This document shows, in pieces, positions 36,671-37,692 of a stretch of DNA of 64,000 nucleotides (positions are counted from its first letter, which is position 1; every line of letters begins with the position of its first letter). The DNA is from Escherichia phage slur02. The stretch lies in sequence record NC_028927.1; one strand, written 5' to 3'. Under the pieces are notes generated by a model, which was not told the DNA's origin, did not search any database, and was given only the letters and a program-made list of their open reading frames with translations. Position numbers and translations under genes: made by a program.

Positions 36671-36746
36671 TGGTCGAGGCAGTAGGGATCGAACCTACGA
36701 CCTAGGACTTAGAAGGTCCTTGCTCTTCCTTCTGAGCTATGCCCCG
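36671..36746 (-). tRNA. tRNA-Arg (anticodon UCU), CCA encoded
   Basis: Manual cloverleaf: acceptor CGGGGCA/TGCCTCG, T-arm GTAGG-TTCGATC-CCTAC, anticodon loop CUUCUAA. Confidence 0.75.
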
Positions 36747-36750
36747 TAAT

Positions 36751-36826
36751 TGGGGTGACCGATGGGAGTCGAACCCATGACTACGAGAATCACAATCTCG
36801 AGTTCTACCAACTGAACTACGGCCAC
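36751..36826 (-). tRNA. tRNA-His (anticodon GUG), CCA encoded
   Basis: Manual fold: acceptor GTGGCCG/CGGTCAC, discriminator C, anticodon stem CGAGA/TCTCG with loop UUGUGAU; no G at -1. Confidence 0.6.
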
Positions 36827-36940
36827 ATTAATACCTACTCCAACAATCAAGATGTCTTCACACGAAATTAAGAGAAGAGTGATCAGTTCAACCCCTATAA
36901 TCGCGTCAAGTAGATATTAATGTGACAGTTGTCACAAATT

Positions 36941-37015
36941 TGGCGGACGTGATAGGATTCGAACCTATAACCAATCGCTTAACAGGCGATCGCTCTACCA
37001 TTGAGCTACACATCC
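36941..37015 (-). tRNA. tRNA-Asn (anticodon GUU), CCA encoded
   Basis: Manual fold: D-arm GCTC-AATGGTA-GAGC, anticodon stem ATCGC/GCGAT with loop CUGUUAA, T-arm ATAGG-TTCGAAT-CCTAT. Confidence 0.65.
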
Positions 37016-37019
37016 AAAT

Positions 37020-37106
37020 TGGTGGGGAGTGGTGGAGTCGAACCACCCGAGTCGCAATGACAATGAATTTACAGTCCACACCGCTACCTCTACGGGATAA
37101 CTCCCC
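37020..37106 (-). tRNA. tRNA-Tyr (anticodon GUA), long variable arm, CCA encoded
   Basis: Anticodon loop CUGUAAA, T-arm GGTGG-TTCGACT-CCACC, acceptor GGGGAGT/ACTCCCC. Confidence 0.6.
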
Positions 37107-37118
37107 TAATTCATAATT

Positions 37119-37193
37119 TGGTGGCCCTGGGTGGAATTGAACCACCATCTGGCGATTATGAGTCGCTTGCTTGAACCTTCCAGCTACAGGGCC
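37119..37193 (-). tRNA. tRNA with CAU anticodon (Ile in T4, or Met), CCA encoded
   Basis: Anticodon loop CUCAUAA; T-arm GGTGG-TTCAATT-CCACC; acceptor GGCCCTG/CAGGGCC. Confidence 0.65.
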
Positions 37194-37194
37194 T

Positions 37195-37270
37195 TGGTGC
37201 TGATTGACGGAATCGAACCGCCGACGTCCTCATTACAAGTGAGTTGCTCTACCTACTGAGCTAAATCAGC
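37195..37270 (-). tRNA. tRNA-Thr (anticodon UGU), CCA encoded
   Basis: Anticodon loop CUUGUAA; acceptor GCTGATT/AATCAGC. Confidence 0.7.
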
Positions 37271-37276
37271 AAAAAC

Positions 37277-37366
37277 TGGCGGAGGCGATAGGATTTGAAC
37301 CTATGAGTCGCCGGAGCGACTGCCGGTTTTCAAGACCGGTGCATTAAACCACTCTGCCACGCCTCC
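37277..37366 (-). tRNA. tRNA-Ser (anticodon UGA), long variable arm, CCA encoded
   Basis: Anticodon stem CCGGT/ACCGG with loop CUUGAAA; variable arm hairpin; acceptor GGAGGCG/CGCCTCC. Confidence 0.7.
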
Positions 37367-37368
37367 AG

Positions 37369-37442
37369 TCTCCATACAAGGATTTGAACCTTGGACCTCC
37401 TGATCCCAAATCAGGCGCTCTACCAAACTGAGCTACACGGAG
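37369..37442 (-). tRNA. tRNA-Pro (anticodon UGG), no encoded CCA
   Basis: Anticodon stem CCTGA/TCAGG with loop UUUGGGA; 3' end only 2 nt from tRNA-Ser 5' end. Confidence 0.7.
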
Positions 37443-37452
37443 TAAATTAAAT

Positions 37453-37526
37453 TGGAGCGGATAATGAGAATCGAACTCACATCATCAGATTGGAAGTCTG
37501 AGGTAATACCATTATACGATATCCGC
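37453..37526 (-). tRNA. tRNA-Gly (anticodon UCC), CCA encoded
   Basis: Anticodon stem TCAGA/TCTGA with loop CUUCCAA; acceptor GCGGATA/TATCCGC. Confidence 0.7.
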
Positions 37527-37531
37527 AAATT

Positions 37532-37618
37532 TGGTGCGAGAAGTGGGACTCGAACCCACAAGGAAATCATTCCGCAGCATTTTAAGTGCTGTGCCTTTAC
37601 CAATTTGACCATTCTCGC
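37532..37618 (-). tRNA. tRNA-Leu (anticodon UAA), long variable arm, CCA encoded
   Basis: Anticodon stem CAGCA/TGCTG with loop CUUAAAA; acceptor GCGAGAA/TTCTCGC. Confidence 0.7.
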
Positions 37619-37619
37619 G

Positions 37620-37692
37620 CTGGGAATAAAGGACTCGAACCTTTGCATCCTGGAATCAAAATCCAGTGCCTTACCAACTTGGCTAATTCCCA
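37620..37692 (-). tRNA. tRNA-Gln (anticodon UUG), no encoded CCA
   Basis: Anticodon stem CTGGA/TCCAG with loop UUUUGAU; 3' end 1 nt from tRNA-Leu 5' end. Confidence 0.7.

Follow-up and report, generated by a model that had tools for sequence, protein, structure and literature searches.

What kind of transfer RNA (tRNA) gene cluster does Escherichia phage slur02 carry, and how did it come to include tRNA genes that phage T4 lacks? The window analyzed here is a 64,000-nucleotide (nt) stretch of the slur02 genome (NC_028927.1), and the cluster occupies positions 36671–37692 of it. We read the locus as a T2-type Tequatrovirus tRNA operon that comprises 11 tRNA genes, a small open reading frame (ORF), homologs of the stable RNA genes rnaD and rnaC, and a terminator, with tRNA-His as a separate cassette. 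We give this reading a probability of about 0.85.

Genes were called with ARAGORN over the whole window and with the Rfam covariance model RF00005 (gathering score 29 bits). ARAGORN found exactly 11 tRNA genes, all on the minus strand and all within 36671–37692. Their span, order, and anticodons agree exactly with an initial annotation of this stretch. In order of transcription, the genes are as follows:

37619..37692, minus strand: tRNA-Gln(UUG), by ARAGORN and Rfam (67.4 bits); discriminator G, no encoded CCA; 88% identity to T4
37532..37618, minus strand: tRNA-Leu(UAA), by ARAGORN and Rfam; CCA encoded; 100% identical to T4, T2, and T6
37453..37526, minus strand: tRNA-Gly(UCC), by ARAGORN and Rfam; CCA encoded; 100% identical to T4, T2, and T6
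37368..37442, minus strand: tRNA-Pro(UGG), by ARAGORN and Rfam; discriminator A, no encoded CCA; 99% to T4, 100% to T2
37277..37366, minus strand: tRNA-Ser(UGA), by ARAGORN and Rfam; CCA encoded
37195..37270, minus strand: tRNA-Thr(UGU), by ARAGORN and Rfam; CCA encoded; 97% to T4, 92% to T6, absent in T2; 1 nt to the next tRNA
37119..37193, minus strand: CAU-anticodon tRNA of T2 type, by ARAGORN and Rfam; 100% to the T2 gene, 65% to T4 Ile, 68% to T6
37020..37106, minus strand: tRNA-Tyr(GUA) with a long variable arm, by ARAGORN; 100% to T6, 99% to T2, absent in T4
36941..37015, minus strand: tRNA-Asn(GUU), by ARAGORN and Rfam (76.6 bits); 99% to T2, absent in T4 and from the T6 stretch read
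36751..36826, minus strand: tRNA-His(GUG), by ARAGORN and Rfam (65.1 bits); C73, encoded CCA, U at −1
36671..36746, minus strand: tRNA-Arg(UCU) of T2 type, by ARAGORN and Rfam; 66% to T4, 97% to T2, absent from the T6 stretch read

The bacterial-type cloverleaf was recognized in all 11 genes by ARAGORN, and 10 of them also passed the Rfam gathering score (59–77 bits, E = 1e-11 to 1e-16). The exception is tRNA-Tyr, which fell below the gathering score and gave only a weak, sub-threshold match to the tRNA-Sec model (30.9 bits). We accept it as real because it is 100% identical to the tRNA-Tyr of T6, which is expressed, seen on a northern blot, and functional (PMC13096335). None of Tyr, Asn, and His was rejected by ARAGORN, and Asn and His also pass Rfam. 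A permissive Rfam search (E up to 10, positions 36000–38300) also gave weak matches to Plastid-ycf2, sX4, YrlA, and tRNA-Sec, all of which fall on tRNA genes or on the strand antisense to these and are artefacts. CCA is encoded in nine of the 11 genes. The two that lack it, Gln and Pro, lie as close to the next tRNA as had been annotated: 1 nt (C) separates the discriminator G of tRNA-Gln from the start of tRNA-Leu, and 2 nt (CT) separate the discriminator A of tRNA-Pro from the start of tRNA-Ser.

The map of reference T4 (NC_000866) runs Gln, Leu, Gly, Pro, Ser, Thr, Ile, segB, Arg, rnaD, rnaC, with eight tRNA genes in all; the T4 set and segB position given in the initial annotation agree with this map. 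The slur02 cluster has the same genome position as that of T4, downstream of 57B/57A/1/3 and the trna.2–4 ORFs (T4 additionally has ipI), lies on the same strand, and has all eight T4 anticodons. Leu and Gly are identical between the two phages, and Gln and Pro lack CCA in both, with the same 1-nt and 2-nt spacing. Pro and Ser are 97–99% identical to their T4 counterparts and 100% identical to those of T2, and both are absent from the T6 stretch read. As judged by alignment, the proximal part of the cluster, from Gln to Thr, consists of the T4 genes. The distal genes differ. The CAU tRNA and Arg are only 65% and 66% identical to the T4 Ile and Arg genes and are thus different genes from these, not orthologs, and segB is absent from the interval between them, which instead holds Tyr, Asn, a leader, and His. 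On the same alignments, the distal block (the CAU tRNA, Tyr, Asn, Arg, and a 116-amino-acid ORF after Arg) is a T2-type allele in place of T4 Ile-segB-Arg. We describe the distal half as a replacement of the whole block because its CAU and Arg genes are 65–66% identical to T4 but 97–100% identical to T2.

The initial annotation had matched the first seven genes plus Arg to the T4 set. This holds for the anticodons and the order but fails for the sequences of the CAU and Arg genes. Likewise, Tyr, Asn, and His are indeed absent from T4 and lie between the CAU tRNA and Arg, where T4 has segB, but a three-gene insertion at that point does not stand. In such a scheme, the classical T4 set of eight would have received the three extra tRNA genes together at the segB site; the eight shared specificities do keep T4 order and anticodons, with the extras between the CAU tRNA and Arg. 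We consider it very unlikely. The CAU and Arg genes are T2 genes by identity, the ORF that follows Arg is absent from T4, T2 has Tyr-Asn-Arg without His, so that His was inserted separately, and T6 has Tyr followed by segB.

The T2-type block, by comparison, accounts for all four of its tRNAs at 97–100% identity to T2, for the missing segB, and for the flanking ORF. In phages T2L, RB1, and RB3, segB is missing and the cluster has tRNA-Met(CAU), Tyr, Asn, and an alternative Arg, an arrangement described in 2008 (PMC2330249). In crosses of T4 with T2L, the T2L Met/Tyr/Asn/Arg block was almost completely excluded (PMC2330249). With T2 and T2L (AP018813; PMC2330249), slur02 shares the absence of segB, the CAU, Tyr, Asn, and Arg genes, the downstream ORF, the Gln-Leu-Gly-Pro-Ser genes, and, to go by its sequence features, the preferred SegB site within tRNA-Asn. 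It differs from T2 (AP018813) in that T2 has an ORF at the place of tRNA-Thr, has a different anticodon arm in tRNA-Gln, and lacks a 190-nt cassette of leader and tRNA-His between Asn and Arg. With T6 (PMC13096335), slur02 shares an identical tRNA-Tyr gene straight after the CAU tRNA; T6 differs in having segB after Tyr, and in the stretch read it lacks Pro, Ser, Asn, and His.

Downstream of tRNA-Arg, the transcription unit continues with an ORF, two stable RNA genes, and a hairpin:

36302..36652, minus strand: 116-amino-acid ORF between tRNA-Arg and the rnaD homolog; absent in T4, present in T2
36188..36305 (approximate limits), minus strand: rnaD (species 2) homolog, aligning at ~98–99% to T4
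36043..36181 (approximate limits), minus strand: rnaC (species 1) homolog, aligning at 98–99% to T4
35969..35992, minus strand: intrinsic-terminator-like hairpin and T run downstream of the rnaC homolog

As in T4, rnaD, rnaC, and a terminator therefore follow Arg, though here the ORF is interposed. This ORF aligns with its T2 counterpart along its entire length and belongs to PHROG 3355 (E = 7e-52), a family of unknown function. In T4, a single primary transcript runs through the cluster, from a promoter just upstream to an end after the species I RNA gene (PMC2330249), and the hairpin at 35969..35992 is likely the end of the tRNA transcription unit in slur02.

The interval between Asn and Arg shows how the cluster grew beyond the T2 arrangement. 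Alignment with T2 reveals one clean insertion of 190 nt: T2 reads Asn-CCAAA|TACG-Arg, and slur02 interposes a 114-nt spacer, tRNA-His, and 'AT'. Both borders of the insertion lie at a tRNA 3' CCAA. Because T2 has Tyr-Asn-Arg without His, tRNA-His was acquired separately from Tyr and Asn. Klebsiella Jiaodavirus phages and Erwinia phage COW86c carry the same tRNA gene with a leader of ~100 nt (83–92% identity), placed after tRNA-Gln, and a more distant version is found in Morganella phage MP1. The border on the tRNA-Asn side coincides with a further feature:

36939..36965, minus strand: 27-nt sequence GGTTCGAATCCTATCACGTCCGCCAAA at the 3' end of tRNA-Asn, matching published features of the preferred T4 SegB site

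T4 SegB cuts preferentially inside the tRNA-Asn gene of T2L, for which five distinguishing bases have been published, and enzymes of this type cut at tRNA 3' CCAA (PMC2330249). In slur02, the site GGTTCGAATCC...CCAAA fits GGTTCRANTCC...CCAR and has G6, A16, G18, A26, and A27 under an inferred site numbering; with that numbering, the 3' end of tRNA-Asn would constitute a preferred SegB recognition sequence. Acquisition of the His cassette through repair of a break at the Asn CCAA site, with a heterologous T4-like phage as donor, is a likely route because the insertion point is where SegB-type homing endonucleases cut.

Genes for GIY-YIG or seg-like homing endonucleases lie at varying places within the tRNA clusters of relatives: after tRNA-Gln in Klebsiella phages, replacing tRNA-Pro in Phaginator, and after tRNA-Tyr in T6. 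Their positions in the related-phage stretches L003, L007, L005, and L020 are 1750–2418, 1750–2424, 1935–2585, and 1–422, respectively. These scattered positions fit repeated cassette exchange at tRNA gene ends. At the 5' edge of the His cassette itself, there is a small hairpin on the minus strand (GTGACA-AC-TGTCAC, 36922..36935), the arms of which resemble both strands of the tRNA-His acceptor stem (GTGGCC / GGTCAC). The Erwinia phage version shares its TGTCAC half. Combined with an arm of the leader, the hairpin makes up a 24-nt inverted repeat running into tRNA-His.

Two genes upstream of the cassette call for comment on their identity. The CAU tRNA has a paired G1-C72 and is therefore not an initiator tRNA. 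Its best matches in Escherichia coli are genes annotated as tRNA-Ile (81.6% over the full length), and the name 'Met' given by ARAGORN derives from the anticodon alone. It is probably tRNA-Ile2, the lysidine form that reads AUA, to judge by these sequence features, and is not the T4 tRNA-Ile gene. The tRNA-Gln gene (37619–37692) is the same as that of T4 and T6 except that its entire anticodon arm is replaced, with the stem CTGGA/TCCAG in place of TAGCA/TGCTA and the loop UUUUGAU in place of CUUUGAC; T2 has one further base change. The same arm variant is present in phages Phaginator and JY01. Such a localized swap could be relevant to synthetase recognition or to evasion of anticodon nucleases.

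All of the tRNAs would most likely be transcribed in one polycistronic precursor, as in T4, from a promoter just upstream to the terminator. Host ribonuclease P (RNase P) would then cut the 5' ends, and endo- and exonucleases would form the 3' ends. The initial proposal of dimeric precursors for Gln and Pro is reasonable, because their spacing and missing CCA match T4. The CCA-adding enzyme would be needed only for Gln and Pro in slur02; in T4, it is needed for Ser and Ile as well. The T4 genes for these two end without encoded CCA (G-TAA and A-TAT), whereas slur02 and T2 encode it in Ser and the CAU tRNA. Because Ser and the CAU tRNA encode CCA here, the phage should be less dependent than T4 on host 3'-end repair.

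Codon use was counted over 60 ORFs of the window (15,769 codons, 35% G+C). The eight classical tRNAs read A-ending codons, which are rare in the host and heavily used in these ORFs; TTA, AGA, and ATA occur at 30.6, 11.3, and 12.9 per 1000 codons. Codons for Tyr, Asn, and His occur at 45.7, 61.9, and 17.0 per 1000, compared with about 28, 39, and 23 in E. coli, so that Tyr and Asn codons are used ~1.6 times as often as in the host. The check on codon usage suggested initially thus gave a divided answer, with Tyr and Asn raised and His not. Codon demand fits tRNA-Tyr and tRNA-Asn but not tRNA-His.

The tRNA-His gene is unusual in a second respect. It has a 7-base-pair (bp) acceptor stem (G1-C72), C73, an encoded CCA, and T at −1, confirming the initial annotation of a putative tRNA-His with C73 and no G-1. 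The GUG anticodon and C73 of a canonical bacterial tRNA-His are therefore present, and the G-1 that pairs with C73 is missing. The hisR gene of E. coli, present in one copy in each of 5426 genomes, is 80% identical to the phage gene and has G at −1. T at −1 and C73 are common to all 10 distinct phage tRNA-His genes examined. Their sources are Tequatrovirus, Jiaodavirus, Erwinia COW86c-like phages, Morganella MP1, Aeromonas AsFcp_1, Vibrio D479, Mycobacterium BeanWater, T5, and T4-like IMG/VR contigs of 170–171 kb with three further distinct genes (L010, L015, and L016). RNase P prefers U at −1 in ordinary cleavage, and the simplest prediction is therefore a mature tRNA-His that lacks G-1. The T5 record annotates its tRNA-His as starting with U-1 (AY543070). 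For histidyl-tRNA synthetase (HisRS) of E. coli, deletion or substitution of G-1:C73 causes a significant drop in Vmax/Km, loss of the 5' phosphate of G-1 lowers activity 510-fold, and the anticodon acts only as a weak determinant (PMC4357726).

Immediately upstream of tRNA-His, most of the 114-nt spacer is taken up by a predicted RNA structure:

36827..36921, minus strand: predicted 95-nt structured leader RNA domain, multibranch; fold z-score −4.4 relative to shuffles

The domain is closed by a helix of 13–14 bp (5' arm 36909–36921, 3' arm 36827–36839; ATTAATATCTACT(T)...(G)AGTAGGTATTAAT), the last pair of which joins an A to U(−1) of tRNA-His. We compared 11 distinct leaders of T4-like phages. 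The interiors vary in length (60–107 nt) and are in part not related by sequence, and all 11 leaders are predicted to keep a closing helix of 13–15 bp that ends at −1 to −3. In an alignment of the arms only (10 variants), 98.6% of cells are paired, as opposed to 40–59% with a shift of the partner by one to three columns, a control that somewhat favors the helix since the helix was derived from the same sequences. The persistence of the helix around non-homologous interiors is a stronger argument than this control. Three pairs of the closing helix change on both sides, and many pairs are G-U. Conservation of the leader helix with compensatory changes across T4-like genera, as these folds predict, is possibly new.

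The spacer could also be explained as an element that acts in DNA: a promoter, the scar of a recombination event, or a miniature inverted-repeat element. In favor of this, it has terminal inverted repeats around a variable interior and lies at the border of a cassette. We regard this as unlikely. Many pairs of the helix are G-U; such pairs form only in the transcribed strand and speak against a DNA-level element, and the pairs that change on both sides point the same way. No other copy of the repeat was seen among the inverted repeats of the window, and no sigma-70-like site was found on the tRNA strand in the spacer, in a scan whose promoter models leave out the middle and late types of T4. 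Within the same limits, there is no support for an internal tRNA-His promoter. T5, moreover, has an experimentally named stable RNA at the same position and with the same architecture.

In T5 (AY543070), the 106-nt RNA III lies immediately 5' of tRNA-His, and its closing helix of 13–15 bp likewise has a last pair that involves U-1; the T5 tRNA-His shares U at −1 and C73. The T4-like leader is thus predicted to resemble RNA III in being a helix-closed domain that abuts position −1. The two differ in that the T5 record calls RNA III a 'stable RNA with unknown functions', whereas the T4-like leader is known here from its sequence and predicted fold, and the tRNA-His genes themselves are 65% identical (50/77). 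No sequence homology was found between the leader and RNA III, with blastn matches of 11–13 nt only (E = 0.6–2), or between the leader and T5 RNA I or RNA1. The permissive Rfam search over 36000–38300 (E up to 10) gave no match inside the spacer.

Some other candidates for structured or tRNA-like elements were rejected. A search of the spacer for a degenerate tRNA with ARAGORN found none, and a closing helix of 14 bp does not resemble a tRNA. The leader upstream of tRNA-Gln (37693–37795) folds no better than shuffles (z = −1.4) and is not a second leader of the His type. Short hairpins ending at −1 in the tRNA-His leaders of Aeromonas and Vibrio phages were seen by eye only and are absent from minimum-energy folds.

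Several of these observations weigh against the reading of the locus as a T2-type operon with a tRNA-His cassette. Its transcription and processing are modeled on T4, and the terminator is the only one of their signals seen here. His codons are not over-used, at 17 per 1000, so demand does not explain tRNA-His. Charging of this tRNA is doubtful, as it lacks the G-1 on which E. coli HisRS relies.

Two accounts of tRNA-His follow from the missing G-1. In the first, which we hold only tentatively, tRNA-His without G-1 is a feature of phages (T4-like phages of several hosts, T5, and a mycobacteriophage), and the leader helix of 13–15 bp that runs to U-1 in enterobacterial T4-like phages and T5 would set an unusual 5' end or free a stable small RNA, leading to unorthodox charging or to a use other than decoding. 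The helix might, for example, make RNase P retain U-1. In the second, tRNA-His would not serve histidine decoding at all: as a poor substrate for HisRS, it would be a decaying passenger, or else a decoy or spare for a nuclease that cuts GUN anticodons. The absent G-1, on which HisRS activity depends (PMC4357726), and the unraised use of His codons agree with this, as does the finding that phage tRNA-Tyr acts partly as a competing substrate for Septu (PMC13096335). Against it, tRNA-His keeps a full cloverleaf (65 bits) and is conserved across genera, U at −1 in all 10 distinct genes suggests a working alternative rather than decay, and a T5 tRNA-His with a changed anticodon is an effective amber suppressor according to the T5 record (AY543070). 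Some relatives (L006/L007) replace the entire T-stem of tRNA-His and keep its pairing, and the gene is clearly under selection for tRNA structure, to go by these sequences; a decoy would need that structure too. Tyr, Asn, and His make up three members of the set of four queuosine (GUN) tRNAs, the targets of anticodon nucleases of the colicin E5 type, and a connection of the three phage tRNAs with such nucleases is a lead, not a result. We rate the second account as doubtful.

A literature search found no paper on phage tRNA-His without G-1, with most of the older (1980s) T5 literature outside its reach. A tRNA-His without G-1 together with a leader helix ending at −1 may be undescribed for T4-like phages.

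The gene arrangement as such is public, common, and already known, and the cluster itself adds nothing new. Escherichia phage slur04 (Tequatrovirus slur02) matches a 1.8-kb region around it at 100% identity, and dozens of other Tequatrovirus genomes (wV7, JK23, and PhiZZ23 among them) match at 97–99.5%. When a 381-nt stretch spanning His, the spacer, Asn, and Tyr was used as the query, 185 deposited phage records covered at least 80% of it. We consider the cluster known because the slur04 RefSeq record already annotates all 11 tRNAs at matching positions and about 185 deposited genomes carry Tyr-Asn-spacer-His. The initial comparison with T4 was thus correct in that the 11-gene order is absent from reference T4, yet the order is annotated for slur04 and found in these other genomes. 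A difference of 500 bp in JY01-like records falls beyond the tRNA cluster and has no bearing on it.

The surroundings of the cluster offered some further observations. The rnaD and rnaC homologs are not annotated in the slur04 RefSeq record, and the 5' end of the rnaD homolog overlaps the stop codon of the 116-amino-acid ORF. A second ORF flanks the stable RNA genes at 35441–35914 on the minus strand (157 amino acids, PHROG 2280, unknown function). No Pfam match was found for the 116-amino-acid ORF or the neighboring ORFs, for which PHROGs gave only families of unknown function.

The cluster exemplifies how the tRNA sets of T-even phages are rebuilt as cassettes at 3' CCA ends, where SegB-type homing endonucleases cut. 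Phage tRNAs are now known to counter defenses that cleave tRNAs: tRNA-Tyr of T6 counters Septu, which cuts tRNA-Tyr, as shown for T6, and tRNA-Tyr of T5 counters retron-Eco7 (PMC13096335). The part of the slur02 cluster worth following is the tRNA-His cassette, since E. coli HisRS depends heavily on G-1 and yet this tRNA has U-1, with a conserved helix ending there. During infection the G-1 rule may be bypassed, or else the tRNA may have a role outside translation. If our tentative account is true, tRNA-His would be charged by the host through a route other than the G-1 rule, or it would be used outside decoding.

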